A DNA stretch of 64,000 nt from Elusimicrobiales bacterium (GTDB taxonomy: Bacteria > Elusimicrobiota > Elusimicrobia > Elusimicrobiales > UBA9959): contig JBFXJL010000002.1 of NCBI GenBank assembly GCA_050174915.1, forward strand, positions 195,626-259,625. Direction: 5' to 3'. The stretch's first letter is position 1. The number at the start of each line of letters is the position of its first letter. The position numbers were made by a program, and so were the translations under genes. Positions 22,517-64,000 of the stretch are shown piece after piece. The notes below the pieces were generated by a model. That model was not told where the DNA came from and did not search any database. It saw only the letters and a list, made by a program, of their open reading frames with translations.

Positions 22517-23416
22517 ATGAAAAAAATACTATTGCCGTTATTGATCTTCTGCGCGACTTTCCTTGCCGGCTGCGCCGGGCCGGAGAAGCGCATAAACAAG
22601 ACGCTGGAAGCCGCCTCCGCGGCGGAGAAAAAGAAGGACCTGGCGGCCATGGCCGAACTCTCGGGCGAGATACCGGACTCCTACCTGGCCCCGGAGCGGC
22701 TGGCGGCCTACCCGGAGCCTACGCTGAACCTGCTTTTGAAAACACTGGCGAAGATCTCCTTTTATACCCCCGATAGCGAGGCCAATGCCCTGAAACTGGA
22801 GAGGGCCGTTAACGAAAAGGTGAAGCGCGGAACCTTTGTAACGGACGACATAGAGTCTGTGTATTCGGCGCTGCTGGCCGCGCGGCTTTTCGATAAGGCC
22901 AGGGAGACGCAGGCGCGGTTTCCGGCCATAATCACCGAGAAGCTGCCGGCGATAGTGGTGCCGGAGCCGGCTCCTGCGGGCAACTGGCTGGCCTATGAGC
23001 TTTCGGCGGACGGCAGAACCGCCAGGCTGCGGTCGCTGCGCCTGCACCGCGGGGCGTATATCATAATGGCCATGTCGCCGGGTTGCGGCGTTTCGGCGCG
23101 CGCCGTGCGGGAGATATTGGCGGACCCGGGCCTGGGGCCGATCTTCGGGGCCGGGGCGGTGCTGGTAACCAGGCGTTTCGACGCCGCAGGCGTGCTGGAG
23201 ACCAAAAAAACTACCGGCCTGGACCAGGTTTACATAGCCCATAAATGGGGAGATTTCCCGGGCGTTAATTTTATGACCTCGCCGTGGATCTTCTTCGTTA
23301 AGGACGGTCGGGTGATATCCGACATGCGCGGCTGGGCCGACGAGGGAGAGTATTCGCTGCGCCGGCTGCGCAAGGGCATGGAGAGCATAGGGCTTAAGCC
23401 GGCGCTCTCCAACTAA
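22517..23416 (+). CDS. lipoprotein, function unknown
   Basis: 299 aa. Lipobox LLIFCATFLAGC. A possible thioredoxin-fold remnant (SPGCGVS, CxxS) is not firmly assignable. Confidence 0.6.
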   Translation: MKKILLPLLIFCATFLAGCAGPEKRINKTLEAASAAEKKKDLAAMAELSGEIPDSYLAPERLAAYPEPTLNLLLKTLAKISFYTPDSEANALKLERAVNEKVKRGTFVTDDIESVYSALLAARLFDKARETQARFPAIITEKLPAIVVPEPAPAGNWLAYELSADGRTARLRSLRLHRGAYIIMAMSPGCGVSARAVREILADPGLGPIFGAGAVLVTRRFDAAGVLETKKTTGLDQVYIAHKWGDFPGVNFMTSPWIFFVKDGRVISDMRGWADEGEYSLRRLRKGMESIGLKPALSN

Positions 23417-35510: not shown

Positions 35511-36937
<1,427 letters not shown>

Positions 36938-36938
<1 letters not shown>

Positions 36939-36964
36939 GGGACGCTGATGACTATATGACTATT
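36938..36964 (+). repeat. solo copy of the REP-like repeat, family 1
   Basis: GGGGACGCTGATGACTATATGACTATT, abutting the pilT TAG stop. The sequence is identical to the inverted repeats flanking the RAYT gene. Confidence 0.8.
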
Positions 36965-36997
36965 CGCTGAGCAGCGGCGCAGAGGTTTATAAAATTG

Positions 36998-39177: not shown

Positions 39178-39252
39178 TGGTGCGCTCGACAGGAATCGAA
39201 CCTGTATAACCGCCTTCGCAGGGCGGGACTCTATCCGTTGAGATACGAGCGC
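39178..39252 (-). tRNA. tRNA-Arg (anticodon GCG), CCA encoded
   Basis: 75 nt. Acceptor stem GCGCTCG/CGAGCGC. Anticodon stem CCGCC/GGCGG with loop CTGCGAA. T arm ACAGG-TTCGATT-CCTGT. 3' ACCA. Confidence 0.85.
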
Positions 39253-42543: not shown

Positions 42544-42689
42544 GGGGACGCTGATGACTATATGACTTGTTTTTTTCTGACAGGCGGCTATAATATCCCA
42601 AGGGGTACGACAACTATAATATAAATCGGGCGTCCGCCCCCATATTAGCCATGAACCAATTGAATGGGAATATAGTAATCAGCGTCCCC
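42544..42689. repeat. inverted doublet of the REP-like repeat, family 1 (right arm truncated)
   Basis: GGGGACGCTGATGACTATATGACT (42544-42567) faces ATAGTAATCAGCGTCCCC (42672-42689), with a ~100-bp spacer between them. Confidence 0.7.
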
Positions 42690-42711
42690 CATACACCCAC
42701 GAGGATAAGAA

Positions 42712-43329
42712 ATGCACGTTATTTCCGGAAAACTTACAGACTTTTCAGACAATCCCCTTAATGGAGGTCAAATCATCCTTAAGGGCGATGATTTTGAGGA
42801 CCTTTTAACTGTAGTGACCGATGCCGAAGGGCGCTTCACGCTATCGGCAAAATCAAACACCTATAATGCACTATATGCTGTCAAAGATTATAAGACAAAG
42901 TTTTTGGAGTTCTGGTTCTGGGACCTTCCGCTGAATCGGGATCTTGATCTGCATATAAAAATCGATGGTTTGGAAATCTATGGGATTAAAGCTTGGCGCA
43001 CTTGGCGTGGTGCTCTTGTGTATTTTAGGCCGATGTCATTGAAGCGGTATGTCGCACTTGGAAGGCCGGACAAAACCAAGTTGGCGTTGATATCTCCTCA
43101 ATTACGAATCGAGGATATAAACGTGTCGTTGGATGGCAGGTCTACTCAAGTCTGGGCAATTAACAAAGTACAAGAGAAAGCCGATTCTTCGGAGAACTAC
43201 ATGGACGCTTATTTGATTCATATAGACGACCAAAGATCCACGAAGGGGACGGATTGGCAAATGCTTCGCATAGAACTTTTTGACCGGGAAACTGGAGAAC
43301 ATGGCCAAGGTTGCGCTCCGCTAAAGTAG
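42712..43329 (+). CDS. hypothetical protein with N-terminal carboxypeptidase-regulatory-like (Ig-like) domain
   Basis: 205 aa, AT-rich, with no signal peptide. The N-terminus (SGKLTD..NPL.GGQIILKG.....VVTDAEGRFTL) resembles the CarboxypepD_reg fold. The gene lies between REP-like repeats. Confidence 0.5.
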   Translation: MHVISGKLTDFSDNPLNGGQIILKGDDFEDLLTVVTDAEGRFTLSAKSNTYNALYAVKDYKTKFLEFWFWDLPLNRDLDLHIKIDGLEIYGIKAWRTWRGALVYFRPMSLKRYVALGRPDKTKLALISPQLRIEDINVSLDGRSTQVWAINKVQEKADSSENYMDAYLIHIDDQRSTKGTDWQMLRIELFDRETGEHGQGCAPLK

Positions 43330-43359
43330 CTAAAGTCAGCATCTTCTTAGCCAGGGAGA

Positions 43360-44505
43360 GGGGACGCTGATGACTATATGACTATTTGCAGGTGTTCCGG
43401 GTTTTATTGGCCTTCCTGTTCTAAAAATTTAAAAAACAACAAAATTTACCCCGACAATACGGTGTCGGGGACGTCTGCTATTCTATTCTTACGGGAAGAA
43501 GGGGGGGGATATGCCCAGACAAGCGAGAATAGACGTGCCGGGACAGGTTTATCATGTAATGTCGCGCGGTATAGAGCGCGGCAGTATCTTCCTCAGCGAA
43601 GACGATTATGTGGACTTCCGGGAGCGCATCGGCGTATGGCTTAACAAGTCTGGGGCCAAATGCCTCGCTTGGTGCCTTATGCCGAATCACTTCCACTTCC
43701 TCGTCTTGCGGGGCGAGCGGCCGCTTTCGGAACTGATGCATCATGCTATGACCGGCTATGCCATTAATTTTAACCTAAGGCATCACCGCGCCGGGCACTT
43801 ATTCCAGAATAGGTATAAGGCCATCATCTGTGACCTTGAGGAATACTTCATGGAAGTTGTGCCGTATATACACCTCAATCCGCTGCGCGCGAATCTGGTG
43901 GAAGACCTGGACGGCCTTGCCGCCTACAAATGGTGCGGCCATTGCGCGGCGGTCAGCGGAGTTGAGGATGGAATCCTTAACAGGGACGCGCTTTTATGGC
44001 ACCTTGGGGACAGTGAGGGGGCGGCGGTCGCCAGGTACATGCAGGTTATGCGTGAAAAAGCGGAAGAAATGCGCCAGAAGGATCTCTCCGGAGGCGGACT
44101 ATTGCGCAGCCTGGGCGGGAAAGGCGCCGTTCTGAGGGCTATGCGGGCCGGGGAAAAGGTTTTGTTCGACCAGAGGATACTCGGAGAGGGGGATTTTGTG
44201 GCGGCCGTACTGAGGACCGCCGGCGAAGCCATGCAGAAAGCGAAGAAAAGCCGCGCGGAAGTACTGGGCGAGGTCGCGGCGGCCACCGGCATATCCCGCG
44301 AGGACATTTTAAGGCGTACCCGGGAACGCGGCCCCGCCAGCGCGCGGGCAATTTATTGCTACCTGTGCCGGGAGGCGGCTGGCGGTTCAGCCGTGGAATT
44401 GACTGGTGAATTGGGAATAACGCAGAGCGCCGTCTCAAAGTTGGCGTCCAAAGGGCGTATACTGGCCGAAAGAATGAAAATAGTCATATAGTCATCAGCG
44501 TCCCC
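43360..44505 (+). mobile_element. RAYT-type element: Y1 transposase gene bounded by perfect 28-bp inverted REP-like repeats
   Basis: The left end GGGGACGCTGATGACTATATGACTATTT (43360-43387) is the exact reverse complement of 44478-44505. A subterminal hairpin CCCCGACA/TGTCGGGG (43449-43470) lies inside the left end. Confidence 0.8.
43511..44491 (+). CDS. REP-associated tyrosine (Y1/HUH) transposase, IS200-like fold, with C-terminal DnaA-domain-IV-like HTH
   Basis: 326 aa. YHVMSRG, the HUH motif LMPNHFHFLV, HLFQNRYKA (catalytic Tyr) and PYIHLNPLRA match COG1943/RayT. The C-terminal ARAIYCYLCRE..GGSAVELTGELGITQSAVSKL resembles the DnaA C-terminal HTH. The stop lies inside the right repeat. Confidence 0.8.
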   Translation: MPRQARIDVPGQVYHVMSRGIERGSIFLSEDDYVDFRERIGVWLNKSGAKCLAWCLMPNHFHFLVLRGERPLSELMHHAMTGYAINFNLRHHRAGHLFQNRYKAIICDLEEYFMEVVPYIHLNPLRANLVEDLDGLAAYKWCGHCAAVSGVEDGILNRDALLWHLGDSEGAAVARYMQVMREKAEEMRQKDLSGGGLLRSLGGKGAVLRAMRAGEKVLFDQRILGEGDFVAAVLRTAGEAMQKAKKSRAEVLGEVAAATGISREDILRRTRERGPASARAIYCYLCREAAGGSAVELTGELGITQSAVSKLASKGRILAERMKIVI

Positions 44506-49034: not shown

Positions 49035-50492
49035 ATGAAGATCCTTATCGCCGCCAGCGAAGCGTTCCCGTTCTGCAAGACCGGCGGGCTCGCCGACGTG
49101 ACCGGCGCGCTCGCGCAGGTGTTCGCCCGCACGCCCGACGCCGAGATCGTGCTGTTCCTGCCGCGCTACCGCAACGTGGGCGGGGGGGCTTTCTCGCCCA
49201 AGGCCTGCGGCGGCAGCTTCCTCATCCCGGTGGGCAACCGCGTGGAGACCGCCACCATGAGCCGCGTGCAGTGGGGCAAGGCGGCCGTCTACTTCATCGA
49301 GAACCCCAAGTATTTCGACCGCCCCGGCATGTACCGCACCGCCGCCGGCGACTACGAGGACAACGACGAGCGCTTCCTCTTCTTCTCCCGCGCCGTGCTG
49401 GAAGGCGCCAAGTTCATCGGCTTCAAACCCGACGTCATCCATTGCCACGACTGGCAGACCGGCCTGGTGCCCGCCTACCTGCGCACGCTCTACAAGATAG
49501 ACTCTTTCTTCGCCAAGACGGCCAGCGTGTTCACCATCCATAACATAGCCTACCAGGGCATGTTCCCCAAGGAGACGCTGCTCAAGGCCGGCTTCTCCTG
49601 GCTGGATTTCACGCCGGAGAAACTGGAGTACTACGGCGGCGTGAATTACATGAAGTCCGCTCTGGTCTTCTCCGACCTGATCACCACCGTCAGCCCCACT
49701 TACGCCAGCGAGATCCAGTACCGCCCCGAGTTCGGCCACGGCATGGAGGGCCTGCTCAAGCACCGCACCTCCGACCTGTTCGGCATCCTCAACGGCATCG
49801 ACGAGGAGATCTGGGACCCCGCTACCGACACTTTCCTCGAGCGCGGCTACGAGCTCAAGAGTTTCCAGCGCGGCAAGGCCGCCTGCAAGAAGGCGCTGCA
49901 GAAGGAACTCGGCCTGGAAGAGAACAAGGACATGATCCTGGCCGGCGTGGTCAGCCGCCTGGACCACCAGAAGGGCCTGGACACGCTGCTGCGCGTCGCC
50001 CCTGAATTCACGGACAAGATGCAGTTCGTGGTGCTGGGCGCCGGCGACCCGGGCCTGGCCGACGGTTTCACGGCGCTGGCCGCCGCCAACCCCAAACAGG
50101 TGGCTTTCCGCACCGGCATGGACGAGGCCCTGGCGCACAAGATCTACGGCGCCGCCGACATCTTCGTGATGCCGTCGCGCTTCGAGCCCTGCGGCCTCAG
50201 CCAGATGATCTCTATGCGCTACGGCGCGCTGCCGGTGGTCACCCGCACCGGCGGCCTTAAGGATACCGTCTTCTACAACGGCGAGCCCAAGGATTCCAAC
50301 GGCTTCGCCATCGACCAGGCCGACGAAGGCCAGTTGAAGTCCGTGCTGGGCCACATAGTGTCGCTGTACGGGTGGCGAGAGAACTGGAACCTGATGGTGC
50401 GCAACGCCATGCGCGGCGACTATGCCTGGCACAAGTCGGCCGAGGCCTACATCAAGCTCTTCAACATAGCCGTCCAGCGCCGCCAACTCTGA
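49035..50492 (+). CDS. glgA: glycogen synthase (GT5)
   Basis: 485 aa. MKILIAASEAFPFCKTGGLADV N-terminus and the C-terminal PSRFEPCGLSQM motif. Confidence 0.9.
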   Translation: MKILIAASEAFPFCKTGGLADVTGALAQVFARTPDAEIVLFLPRYRNVGGGAFSPKACGGSFLIPVGNRVETATMSRVQWGKAAVYFIENPKYFDRPGMYRTAAGDYEDNDERFLFFSRAVLEGAKFIGFKPDVIHCHDWQTGLVPAYLRTLYKIDSFFAKTASVFTIHNIAYQGMFPKETLLKAGFSWLDFTPEKLEYYGGVNYMKSALVFSDLITTVSPTYASEIQYRPEFGHGMEGLLKHRTSDLFGILNGIDEEIWDPATDTFLERGYELKSFQRGKAACKKALQKELGLEENKDMILAGVVSRLDHQKGLDTLLRVAPEFTDKMQFVVLGAGDPGLADGFTALAAANPKQVAFRTGMDEALAHKIYGAADIFVMPSRFEPCGLSQMISMRYGALPVVTRTGGLKDTVFYNGEPKDSNGFAIDQADEGQLKSVLGHIVSLYGWRENWNLMVRNAMRGDYAWHKSAEAYIKLFNIAVQRRQL

Positions 50493-50502
50493 CCGAATAA
50501 AG

Positions 50503-50539
50503 GTGACACACAACTTAATTGAATTAAGTTGTGTGTCAC
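50503..50539. repeat. 37-bp perfect palindrome
   Basis: GTGACACACAACTTAATT-G-AATTAAGTTGTGTGTCAC. No U-tract follows on either strand. Confidence 0.8.
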
Positions 50540-50614
50540 TGTAATTGAGGGCCTATTTGCGCCTGGGCCTATGGGCCCTCGCGGCCGTTCGCCGTTTAAG
50601 CGATAATTATATAG

Positions 50615-57806: not shown

Positions 57807-57968
57807 AAGAAACTTACCTACCGGTAAATAAATTATATCAGAGCCGCCCGTGTGTGTCAACCTGCCCAAAAGGCCCAGGCGGGCCTGGGCCTTTTTCTTT
57901 CCGCCGGTTGGGCCCTATGCCTCTATTGTCTTTGGTCAAGGTTGTATAAAATAAAAAGGTAGTCGCAG

Positions 57969-58064
57969 CCCTTGTAATCCCCCGATCAGGCGGGGGAGCA
58001 TCCACCGGCGGGCCTTAACCCGCTGTAACCAGGGGAAACGAACTCCGTTCGTTTCTCTTTTTTT
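57969..58064 (+). promoter_or_regulatory. purine-riboswitch-like three-way-junction aptamer (variant pocket) plus intrinsic terminator
   Basis: P1 is CCCUUG (57969-57974) / CAGGGG (58030-58035). J1/2 is UAAU. P2 is CCCCCG/CGGGGG with loop AUCAGG. J2/3 is AGCAUCCAC. P3 is CGGCGGG/CCCGCUG with loop CCUUAA. J3/1 is UAAC. This is followed by GAAACGAAC-UCC-GUUCGUUUC and U7 (58035-58064), 12 nt before ATG 58076. Confidence 0.45.
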
Positions 58065-62523: not shown

Positions 62524-63564
62524 ATGAGGATACTGGCTTTCGAGACCACCTGCGACGAGACCTCCGCTGCCGTGCTGGAGGGGGGGCGCCTGCGCTCCAA
62601 CGAGGTGTTCTCTCAGATCAGCCTGCACCGCAAGTACAGCGGCGTCGTGCCCGAGCTGGCCAGCCGCGCCCACCTGGAAAAGATCCCTTTCGTCATCGGC
62701 GGGGCGCTGGCCCGCGCCGGCCTGCGCGCCCCCCTGAAGCGGGGGGCCTTCGACGCCGTGGCCTTCTCTCGCGGGCCCGGCCTGCCCGGCGCGCTGATGG
62801 TGGGCCGCGTGGCCGCCGAGGCCGCCGCCGAGCTGTCCGGCGCGCCGCTGGTGGGCGTCAACCACCTGGAAGGTCATTTACTGGCCTGCGAGTTCGCCGG
62901 CGGCCGCGCCAGCGAACCCCTTAAATTTCCCCTGGTCGCGCTGCTGGTCTCCGGCGGCCATACCGAGCTGTGGCACGCCCGCGGTTACGGCGACTACCGC
63001 GTGCTGGGCCGCACCCGCGACGACGCCGCCGGCGAGGCTTTCGACAAGGTGGCCAAGCTGCTGGGGCTGCCCTACCCGGGCGGCCCGGAGGTGGAGAAGG
63101 CGGCCGCCCGCGCGCGAGGCAAGGCGCCGGACTTCCCGCGTCCGCACATGCCGGGCACCCGCGATTTTTCTTTCAGCGGCCTCAAGACCGCCGTCAGTTA
63201 TTACCTGGCCGGCAGGCTGGGTCAGGATTTCTATAAGCGCGGCCTGCGCCTGCCGCCCGGCGAGAGGGACCGCGTCTGCCGCGCCTTCCAGGACGCCGTG
63301 ACGGAGACGCTGGTGAAAAAGACGGCCGATACCGCCCGCTCGCTGGGGCTCGACCGCATAGCGGTGGGCGGCGGCGTGTCCGCCAACGGGGCGCTGCGCG
63401 CCGCTTTCGCGCGGCTGCAGGGCTTCGAGGTGCGCTTCTCGGAGCGGGCCTACTGCTCCGACAACGCGGCCATGGTGGCGCTCTGCGCCTTGCGCCGGCT
63501 GGAGGCGGGGAAATTCCGCAACAGCCTCAGGGTGGCCCCCGGGCTGGCGGACCCCGGCTGGTAG
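62524..63564 (+). CDS. tsaD: tRNA N6-adenosine threonylcarbamoyltransferase
   Basis: 346 aa. MRILAFETTCDETSAAV N-terminus, VNHLEGH metal-binding motif, ASKHA fold. Confidence 0.9.
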   Translation: MRILAFETTCDETSAAVLEGGRLRSNEVFSQISLHRKYSGVVPELASRAHLEKIPFVIGGALARAGLRAPLKRGAFDAVAFSRGPGLPGALMVGRVAAEAAAELSGAPLVGVNHLEGHLLACEFAGGRASEPLKFPLVALLVSGGHTELWHARGYGDYRVLGRTRDDAAGEAFDKVAKLLGLPYPGGPEVEKAAARARGKAPDFPRPHMPGTRDFSFSGLKTAVSYYLAGRLGQDFYKRGLRLPPGERDRVCRAFQDAVTETLVKKTADTARSLGLDRIAVGGGVSANGALRAAFARLQGFEVRFSERAYCSDNAAMVALCALRRLEAGKFRNSLRVAPGLADPGW

Positions 63565-63676
63565 GGGACGTTCTTAACTATTGGACTATTTAAGGGGGAG
63601 CTATGTTTTGCTGTTATAAAAAAATGTCACTGGAGATAACTAACGGACAAATAGTCCAATAGTTAAGAACGTCCCC
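63564..63676. repeat. inverted doublet of the REP-like repeat, family 2
   Basis: GGGGACGTTCTTAACTATTGGACTATTT (63564-63591) is the exact reverse complement of 63649-63676. It shares the GGGGACG...ACTAT-N3-ACTAT skeleton with family 1. Confidence 0.8.
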
Positions 63677-64000
63677 ATGCTGATCTGGCTGCTTTCGGAT
63701 TACGACCACAGGAAACACCTGGCTTTCAAGAGCCTGCTGGGCCGCTTTTCCGCCGCCTATCCCGAGGTGCGCGCCGAGTTCGCCGTGAAGAGCCGCCGCA
63801 GCATGTGGGAGAGCCTGTTCGCTCACCTGCGCGATCCCAAGCGCAACCCGCTGGCCGACGTGATAGAGCTGCCCCAGAACTGGACCGAGCTGTTCACGCG
63901 CCTCGGCATGCTGGCCGAGCTGAGCGGCGGCATAGACGCGCTGGCCCGCCGGCGCTACCCCGACTTCGTGCTCAAGGAACTGTGCCGCCACGACGAGGCG
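63677..64000 (+). CDS. partial CDS (5' part), solute-binding-protein-like
   Basis: Not in the ORF track because it runs off the window. The ATG at 63677 is followed by an open frame to 64000 with strong GC3 bias (MLIWLLSDYDHRKHLAFKSLLGRFSAAYPEVRAEF...). The minus-strand ORF 63614..63991 is judged a shadow. The family call is weak. Confidence 0.45.
   Translation, partial: MLIWLLSDYDHRKHLAFKSLLGRFSAAYPEVRAEFAVKSRRSMWESLFAHLRDPKRNPLADVIELPQNWTELFTRLGMLAELSGGIDALARRRYPDFVLKELCRHDEA

Follow-up and report, generated by a model that had tools for sequence, protein, structure and literature searches.

A probable TIRtron in Elusimicrobia: a Y1 transposase gene with a DnaA-type helix-turn-helix and its dispersed terminal inverted repeats

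The stretch of DNA analysed here, 64,000 nt from an Elusimicrobiales bacterium (contig JBFXJL010000002.1, positions 195,626 to 259,625) and referred to as the window, carries at 43360-44505 a 1146-bp element in which the gene for a Y1/HUH protein lies between perfect terminal inverted repeats (TIRs), and copies of the same repeats are scattered through this and related genomes. The system is probably a TIRtron, i.e., a TIRYT gene of TnpAY1 subclass 2.1.2 between its own 28-29-bp TIRs, with the same repeats dispersed as a few solo copies and many inverted doublets and with a mechanism that works on phased pairs. The finding is real, lies well above chance and is biologically coherent. An original prediction, made from the sequence of the window, had taken the element for a live REP/REPIN-RAYT system (REP, repetitive extragenic palindrome; RAYT, REP-associated tyrosine transposase). 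The relationship to RAYTs, the dispersal of the repeats, their linkage to the TIRYT gene and their turnover between species stand, whereas the repeat unit is not palindromic, has no GTAG tag and goes with a protein that scores below the RAYT cutoff. The element is made up as follows:

43360 to 43387, plus strand: left TIR, family A; GGGGACG, a 4-nt variable block and the tandem 8-mer TGACTATA TGACTATT
43511 to 44491, plus strand: TIRYT gene, 326 aa; its TAG stop codon (44489-44491) lies within the right repeat, as predicted
44478 to 44505, minus strand: right TIR, family A; holds the stop codon of the TIRYT gene

The left repeat, GGGGACGCTGATGACTATATGACTATTT, and its exact reverse complement on the right confirm the predicted perfect 28-bp inverted repeat, which reaches 33 nt if one mismatch is allowed. 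At up to 3 mismatches the window contains 4 matches to GGGGACGCTGATGACTATATGACTATTT, against 0 in 100 shuffles. The direct ACTAT pair that had been described inside the repeat is part of a tandem 8-mer, ATGACTAT x2, and the absence of an internal palindrome was borne out, a single 28-mer forming no secondary structure (minimum free energy, MFE, 0 kcal/mol). The spacing of the skeleton is GGGGACG-N6-ACTAT-N3-ACTAT; a search with the N7 version that had been proposed gave 0 matches. The TIR was also considered as a DnaA box and rejected, as by inspection at best 5/9 positions agree with TTATCCACA. Further copies in the window are:

36938 to 36965, plus strand: solo family-A copy with 1 mismatch; its first G doubles as the last base of the TAG stop that ends a PilT/PilU-family gene (35511-36938)
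42544 to 42689: family-A inverted doublet of 146 nt; arms at 42544-42571 (plus strand) and 42662-42689 (minus strand), spacer of 90 nt
63564 to 63676: family-B inverted doublet of 113 nt; both arms perfect GGGGACGTTCTTAACTATTGGACTATTT, spacer of 57 nt; between the tsaD stop and an ATG at 63677

The solo copy on the pilT stop was found as predicted. The family-A doublet was confirmed, though with degenerate arms that differ from the reference at 2 and 5 positions; its 90-nt spacer is kept in the relatives L109 and L096. The family-B doublet, which had been seen as a sister version with the same skeleton, has two perfect arms, with a spacing of N6 instead of N7, and the tsaD stop codon provides its first G. 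Its right arm directly abuts the ATG of the open reading frame (ORF) at 63677, where the metagenome-assembled genomes (MAGs) JACRER and JAMPXK retain 40-70 nt of alignable upstream DNA, so that the window appears to have lost the upstream region of that gene. A third, more degenerate copy suggested at 43467 dissolves into the right half of a palindrome plus a -10-like motif (see below), and GGGGACG is kept there in the closest relatives only. The doublets form long hairpins, of -25.9 kcal/mol (z -4.05) for 42544/42689 and -29.3 kcal/mol (z -8.5) for 63564/63676; a search of the element and the doublets against Rfam found no known RNA.

The protein consists of an N-terminal Y1/HUH domain, a disordered linker (residues ~190-245) and a C-terminal DnaA-domain-IV-like helix-turn-helix (HTH; residues ~245-322), the HUH/Y1 nature and the HTH having been predicted. 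Pfam Y1_Tnp matches residues 13-121 with 36.3 bits, above its cutoff of 23, and Bac_DnaA_C matches residues 251-308 with 29 bits (E 1e-6; gathering cutoff 31.5). In a profile search of the PDB the sole match was DnaA domain IV over residues ~238-313 (2z4r, E 4e-4). PDB sequence searches with the Y1 catalytic domain gave no match, 4er8 included, and RAYT and IS200-type TnpA were recovered by fold search alone. The AlphaFold model (mean pLDDT 77, both domains 80-93, linker disordered) has its best fold match in the E. coli REP-associated tyrosine transposase on a REP hairpin (4er8, E 3e-6, TM 0.73), followed by the TnpA structures of IS200, ISDra2 and IS608 (TM 0.55-0.63), while the C-terminal domain matches the DNA-binding domain of M. 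tuberculosis DnaA on box DNA (3pvp, TM 0.65). The best NCBIfam match is the equivalog REP_Tyr_transpos (NF047646), at 63.8 bits below its cutoff of 80, and the NCBIfam matches of the protein include no IS200-type transposase family. From the family matches and the fold ranking, the protein is a RAYT-like Y1/HUH enzyme and not an ordinary IS200/IS605 TnpA, and it has an added DnaA-type HTH.

Elements of the IS200/IS605 group have subterminal hairpins at both ends and no TIRs, are multicopy and often carry tnpB, none of which is seen here. Their TnpA proteins (IS608, ISDra2) share the HUH/Y1 fold and the catalytic motifs, but the solved structures comprise 125-152 residues compared with 326 aa and an HTH here, and the present element has TIRs, a single palindrome, at its left side, and one syntenic context per variant. 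Among 26 aligned homologs (49-98% identity) H60, H62, Y102, the YIHLNP motif and the C-terminal ARAxYC motif are all invariant; that the two HUH histidines and the tyrosine never vary points to continuing selection for catalysis. The family is large: in a library with clustering at 50% identity, the protein is matched by 635 clusters at E<=1e-30 and by 12,059 at E<=1e-10. The nearest named protein, 98% identical, is from Elusimicrobia bacterium HGW-Elusimicrobia-3, and the named close homologs are all from Elusimicrobia. The contig with the 98% identical protein is syntenic to the window, with ~91% nucleotide identity.

The original prediction had put the system forward as one not known to be described in this lineage, and its novelty was overstated. 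The class is known from other phyla: RAYT-like genes flanked by long TIRs instead of REPs were named TIRYTs, within TIRtrons, by Di Nocera, De Gregorio and Rocco (2013; BMC Genomics 14:522, PMC3733652). In that paper many, not all, TIRs share the sequence GGGGWSAS, some genomes hold dispersed TIRs as singles, dimers or groups, the 3' end of the gene can reach into the right TIR, and variable spacers were already noted in REP dimers. The present element resembles the TIRtrons in its RAYT-like HUH/Y1 gene, the long TIRs in place of REP hairpins, the G-rich outer end, the right TIR lying over the 3' end of the gene and the dispersed copies. The start of family A, GGGGACGC, agrees with GGGGWSAS at 7/8 positions and that of family B, GGGGACGT, at 6/8, the seventh base being G here and A in the consensus. 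The tandem 8-mer core and, as described below, the strictly outward homotypic doublets, helical phasing, family switching and cassette slot were seen here and not found in the passages of PMC3733652 consulted.

TnpAY1 subclass 2.1.2 was defined by a Bac_DnaA_C-like C-terminus (Quentin, Siguier, Chandler and Fichant, 2018; BMC Genomics 19:475, PMC6006769); no REPs were found around subclass 2.1 genes, the subclass was equated with the TIRYTs, and the motif GGGG[AT][CG]A[CG] was not a DnaA box. Judged by its sequence, the protein of the window fits subclass 2.1.2: it is long (~320 aa), has a class-2 Y1 core and a Bac_DnaA_C-like C-terminal domain, and lacks classical REPs nearby. The residue after Y102-K103 is Ala here and Ser in a few homologs, so that the 'serine next to the tyrosine' of PMC6006769 is not evident, and dispersal is extensive here whereas that study reported no dispersed repeats. 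Elusimicrobia are not mentioned in the main text of either paper, and only this lineage appears undescribed for the class. Among the papers searched there was no later one on the TIRYT class and no experimental work on TIRYTs (TnpAY1 subclass 2.1). Genes of this kind are annotated as 'transposase' or 'RayT' although they are without REPs and unlike multiplying insertion sequences (ISs).

The dispersal of the repeats was followed by scanning one genome per species from 185,579 species with the pattern GGGGACG-N6-ACTNT-N3-ACTATT. This gave at least 110 stretches, and the repeat counts that follow come from the matches listed, seen as 8-kb MAG slices. At least 98 of the at least 110 matches fall in 20 Elusimicrobia MAGs, where our own arithmetic from the number of specified bases gives a chance expectation of ~17 matches in the whole collection. 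The repeats are thus not confined to this window and their dispersal is real. Outside the Elusimicrobia there are 12 matches among those listed, at least 2 of which are not due to chance, as they adjoin TIRYT homologs in Desulfobacterota MAGs. A scan of the viral collection IMG/VR returned merely 4 matches, each single, and the idea of phage-borne repeats was rejected.

When up to 3 mismatches are allowed in the tail, the Elusimicrobia slices and the window together hold 188 copies among the matches listed. In each genome one or two repeat families dominate; the families differ at a few positions, and identical 28-mers are shared between species. The inverted pair of TIRs is the unit of the repeat family: 128 of the 188 copies sit in 64 short doublets, the GGGG ends point outward in every one of them and no short inward pairs were seen. 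Heterotypic doublets are absent (0/64) even where a genome holds two families in comparable numbers (8/8 doublets homotypic in MGTZ, 7/7 in MGUK), and the two arms are identical in 25/64. Spacers measure 19-90 nt in the doublets listed and are almost all unique, with few duplicates within a genome. Spacers were also compared with the other fetched DNA as a possible source, which gave orthologs and two within-genome duplicates and nothing else. In one spacer of 89 nt (L082 5191-5279) a terminator hairpin (GAACCGCCGGGG...CCGGCGGTTTTGTTTTG) stands ahead of a TTTTGTAGAATATGAATATCGGGAAGGGG motif that is conserved; this module recurs intergenically in many Elusimicrobia MAGs (L008, L042, L058, L077, L102 and others) and looks like a common terminator-plus-promoter unit.

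The copies are strongly tied to gene ends. The stop codon of an ORF of at least 100 codons lies within 60 nt before the GGGG end in 54% of copies, compared with 11% of random positions, and 14 copies (7.4%) share their first G with a TAG stop, compared with 0.2% of random positions. The sole conserved base in front of GGGG is an A at -1 (145/188 copies); TA precedes GGGG in 60/188. A GTAG tag, proposed earlier as REP-like, is no feature of the repeats, since GTA is found before GGGG in merely 13/188 copies; in the window TAG precedes 3/7 copies and GTAG 2/7. TA as a target-site duplication was rejected because position -2 is a T in just 38% of copies. The lengths of the doublets cluster at 83 and 93 nt, with others at 104, 113, 126, 146 and 158 nt, and 43 non-redundant doublets give a periodicity peak at 10.5-10.7 bp (R 0.48, Rayleigh p ~5e-5), a value as high being reached in 0/5000 jittered sets. 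This ~10.5-bp periodicity is suggestive of helical phasing of the arms.

The repeat population bears on the reading that the system is a canonical REP/REPIN-RAYT system, in which REP hairpins are tagged by GTAG and the RAYT mobilises REPIN doublets by hairpin-guided cleavage of single-stranded DNA (ssDNA). Such a reading would be in line with the nearest solved fold, that of E. coli RAYT on a REP hairpin, with the best NCBIfam match, with the flanks of inverted dispersed repeats, and with copies that are mostly inverted doublets folding as long hairpins 3' of genes. The E. coli TnpAREP/RAYT with its REPs and bacterial interspersed mosaic elements (BIMEs), which supplies the closest solved catalytic fold (4er8), and the Pseudomonas REPIN-RAYT systems (Bertels et al., 2017, PMC5581495) likewise combine a single-copy, vertically inherited gene, as the TIRYT gene appears to be, with flanks of its cognate dispersed repeat and with predominating doublets downstream of genes. 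The REP/REPIN-RAYT label nevertheless fails on three defining features that were tested. A canonical REP is a palindrome of 20-40 nt, and the 28-mer of the window has an MFE of 0; GTAG or CGTC is expected at the foot of the repeat, and GTA was found in the 13/188 copies given above; and the protein lies under the NF047646 equivalog cutoff. Moreover, there is no sequence-level match to 4er8 (~16% identity), the C-terminal HTH is not found on the 165-residue 4er8 chain, which aligns to the N-terminal domain only, the spacers are unique and not copied along with the arms, and REPs are missing around subclass 2.1 genes (PMC6006769). A canonical REP/REPIN-RAYT system is therefore very unlikely.

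Protein variants and repeat families go together. Around TIRYT genes with 94%, 69%, 67.5%, 63% and 60% identity to the window protein, the bracketing inverted repeats belong in each case to the family dispersed in the respective genome, such as family B around the JACRER gene and a separate family around that of CALMZU. A homolog with 36-47% identity in a Desulfuromonadales MAG also has TIRs that begin with GGGGACGT. At orthologous sites the families are exchanged between species. The tsaD-proximal doublet is found at the same site in the window, JACRER and JAMPXK with arms of each genome's own family, those of JAMPXK having the same three substitutions in both arms. Its spacers of 57, 30 and 37 nt (window, JACRER and JAMPXK) cannot be aligned, while the intergenic DNA outside is alignable between JACRER and JAMPXK. 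At several orthologous doublet sites whose flanks share 70% identity or more, one species has family A where another has family B. Between MGTZ and JACRER two spacers are ~80% identical and two others are unrelated despite identical or nearly identical arms, which is replacement and not neutral decay.

The solo copy at 36938 is missing from the orthologous site in the HGW-3-like contig and in MGUI; it is a gain of the window lineage. A 299-aa lipoprotein-like gene (22517-23416; no Pfam match) lies between recG and a pilin-like gene in the window, and the same site in HGW-Elusimicrobia-3 (L089 7054-7135) contains only an 82-nt family-A doublet, the end of which supplies the TAG stop of recG. 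In every structural polymorphism examined, homology stops at a TIR's outer GGGG end. The system is real and has been active over evolutionary time. With distinct families that each have their own protein variant, shared orthologous doublet sites and a polymorphic home locus, the Elusimicrobia set constitutes an unusually clean natural experiment.

The home locus of the TIRYT gene lies between a gene of the UDP-glucose/GDP-mannose dehydrogenase family and an M50 protease gene and is found in five states in five species:

MGUI: simple TIRtron, no cassette
CAYSYJ (L060): two TIRs 98 nt apart, neither gene nor cassette
Window: doublet, 670-nt cassette and TIRtron
MGTZ: doublet, unrelated 1574-nt cassette and TIRtron
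HGW-3: doublet, unrelated 585-nt cassette and TIRtron

The cassette of the window can be described as follows:

42690 to 43359, plus strand: low-GC cassette (44.6% versus 61% for the window) between the GGGG ends of the doublet and the left TIR; holds a 205-aa CarboxypepD_reg-like ORF (42712-43329)

The cassettes have a GC content of 45-48%, compared with 61% for the window, and encode hypothetical proteins unrelated to each other: the 205-aa ORF in the window (42690-43359), a 177-aa ORF in L002 (9359-9935) and a 463-aa ORF in L096 (3589-5155). No further copies of the three cassette proteins were present in any fetched locus. Cassette genes that travel with TIRs were considered and no systematic link was seen; the 205-aa ORF has 56 homologs, of which one with 56% identity lies in an AbiE-containing island without TIRs. 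A second breakpoint of the home locus falls at the foot of the palindrome at 43449, and the 98%-identical relative L002/L109 has no left TIR at the position equivalent to 43360.

In four species the TIRYT gene is found at one and the same locus, and its amino acid identities of 98.2% and 94.5% compare with 97.2% and 93.8% for the adjacent dehydrogenase. Every TIRYT variant examined has one genomic context, more distant species having the gene elsewhere. For the variant P0017, the 8 places listed of 21 contigs have one shared neighbourhood as far as the contigs reach, except L006, a 3.8-kb contig with a different gene call just beyond the right TIR. The gene behaves as a vertically inherited resident and not as a multiplying IS. 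A conventional autonomous IS with TIRs, from which the doublets would have arisen by internal deletion as miniature inverted-repeat transposable elements (MITEs), would account for the perfect TIRs around a single transposase-like ORF, for the IS-like size of 1146 bp, for the two TIRs 98 nt apart at the same site in CAYSYJ, as internal deletion would give, and for short Logan contigs (~1141 nt) that terminate exactly at the TIR ends. The last point was rejected as proof of multiple copies, because a 30-nt inverted repeat alone would be expected to break a k=31 assembly graph. The single syntenic locus with divergence in step with its neighbours and the one context per variant are at odds with an IS, as is the presence of the gene in only 1/14 TIR-bearing slices in each of JACRER and MGTZ. 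In addition, no target-site duplication was seen, position -2 being as variable as noted above, and the interiors of the doublets are unrelated to the interior of the element and to each other. A conventional IS is highly improbable.

The region between the left TIR and the gene contains the following features:

43421 to 43448, plus strand: A-rich tract 5' of the palindrome, present in most orthologs
43449 to 43470, no strand: palindrome CCCCGACA-N6-TGTCGGGG, -9.1 kcal/mol, z -3.4
43476 to 43484, plus strand: TGCTATTCT, an extended -10-like motif (TGnTATnCT; TGCTATnCT) kept in 8/8 TIRYT loci compared

The palindrome is the subterminal hairpin of the original prediction. Its form is (C)CCGACA-N6-TGTCGGG; across orthologs of 60-100% identity (seven further loci) the sequence of the stem is retained and the loop varies, and the palindrome is a candidate operator or hairpin. 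A G-rich Shine-Dalgarno sequence follows 3' of TGCTATTCT at 43501-43508, and the order of left TIR, palindrome, -10-like motif, G-rich ribosome-binding site and ATG is common to 8/8 TIRYT loci of at least 60% identity, the window included. This conservation suggests that the region is a promoter with an operator, in which the A-rich tract may be an UP-element; a strict sigma-70 consensus scan did not call the TGCTATTCT motif. On the minus strand the palindrome and T-run score as terminator-like, the A-rich tract there being read as the T-tail of the hairpin. In HGW-3-like genomes (L002 9925-9960 and L109 1225-1262) the outer left TIR is absent and a longer upstream palindrome, GACGTCCCCGACA-ATACGG-TGTCGGGGACGTC, consists of two inward-facing GGGGACGTC motifs; it may be a remnant junction. 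In the Desulfuromonadales MAG (L029 108-1396) a truncated TIRYT fragment stands beside a full TIRYT gene, each with a GGGGACGT(T/C)CTT... repeat ~46 nt before its ATG. The hexamers TTGACT and TATCCT occur inside this repeat or beside it, so that in this relative the TIR may itself hold the promoter.

These observations raise the hypotheses that the tandem 8-mer is the HTH site, that cleavage takes place at the (A)GGGG end and that a phased TIR pair is the working unit. We infer the mode of binding, the site of cleavage, the directionality and the regulation as follows. Within each TIR the HTH domain would read the tandem 8-bp repeats (TGACTWTW x2) in double-stranded form, be it in duplex DNA or in a folded doublet, whose stem is the same duplex. 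So bound, the protein would have its HUH/Tyr102 active site over the outer, G-rich end, (A)GGGGACG, and would cut and rejoin strands there, two inverted and helically phased TIRs being handled together. Over evolutionary time TIR pairs would be installed or replaced as homotypic pairs, mostly just 3' of stop codons, and the DNA abutting the GGGG ends would be exchanged, including that in the slot beside the TIRYT gene. The gene itself would behave as a vertically inherited resident, possibly domesticated, and the conserved palindrome over its promoter-like region probably serves in autoregulation.

It is tempting to speculate further that the TIRYT, unlike every characterised relative, is targeted by its DnaA-type HTH to phased TIR pairs as duplex DNA and swaps the DNA between or beside their GGGG ends, although the proposal is unlikely. 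If it is true, paired sites throughout the genome would be kept uniform by replacement, and this would explain both concerted evolution and family switching. Likewise, the place beside the gene would be an integron-like slot into which sister species have taken different foreign genes of low GC. It would also be a new mode for Y1 transposases, distinct from the hairpin-guided 'peel and paste' of ssDNA.

Several points weigh against the TIRtron with a phased-pair mechanism. The Bac_DnaA_C score of the protein falls under the Pfam cutoff (29 versus 31.5 bits). The window has family-B repeats yet no family-B TIRYT within it. As the MAGs were seen as 8-kb slices with a listing of at least 110 matches, neither copy numbers per genome nor the single-copy status of the TIRYT gene are established. 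The near-unique spacers do not sit easily with a simple copy-and-paste of entire doublets, which, as spacers are almost never copied with the arms, fails to account for the pattern. The length periodicity comes largely from the two modes at 83 and 93 nt and could be a legacy of two founder lengths, and the conservation of the arms could stem from a host function instead of transposition. To our knowledge there is no biochemistry for any TIRYT, and the HUH/Y1 enzymes that we know to have been studied so far cut ssDNA presented by hairpins. As a single TIR cannot fold, recognition may therefore need the folded doublet and not the duplex.

That the present role of the TIRYT is chiefly sequence-specific DNA binding, with the TIR pairs as phased operator or architectural sites, or 3' untranslated region hairpins or terminators, under host selection and with little or no DNA cleavage, would agree with arms that are 100% identical at orthologous sites where the flanks are 76-88% identical, with the ~10.5-bp phasing between arms, the strong bias to sites just 3' of stop codons, the DnaA-type HTH and the conserved palindrome over the gene's own promoter-like region, but it has very little probability, as neither the HUH histidines nor the catalytic tyrosine vary within the family and as family switching, spacer replacement, solo gain and cassette swaps at GGGG ends all need breakage and joining of DNA.

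A few other features of the window are recorded for completeness. Above the Rfam gathering score are a class A RNase P RNA at 1835-2218, a 2dG-II purine riboswitch aptamer at 57967-58037 and a tRNA at 39181-39252 on the minus strand. Upstream of 35070 (L002 1785) the neighbouring genes differ between the window and the HGW-3-like contig, L002 having an aldehyde:ferredoxin oxidoreductase gene there, and opposite the intergenic DNA at 50489-50542 L002 has a longer, GC-rich insert (16982-17125).

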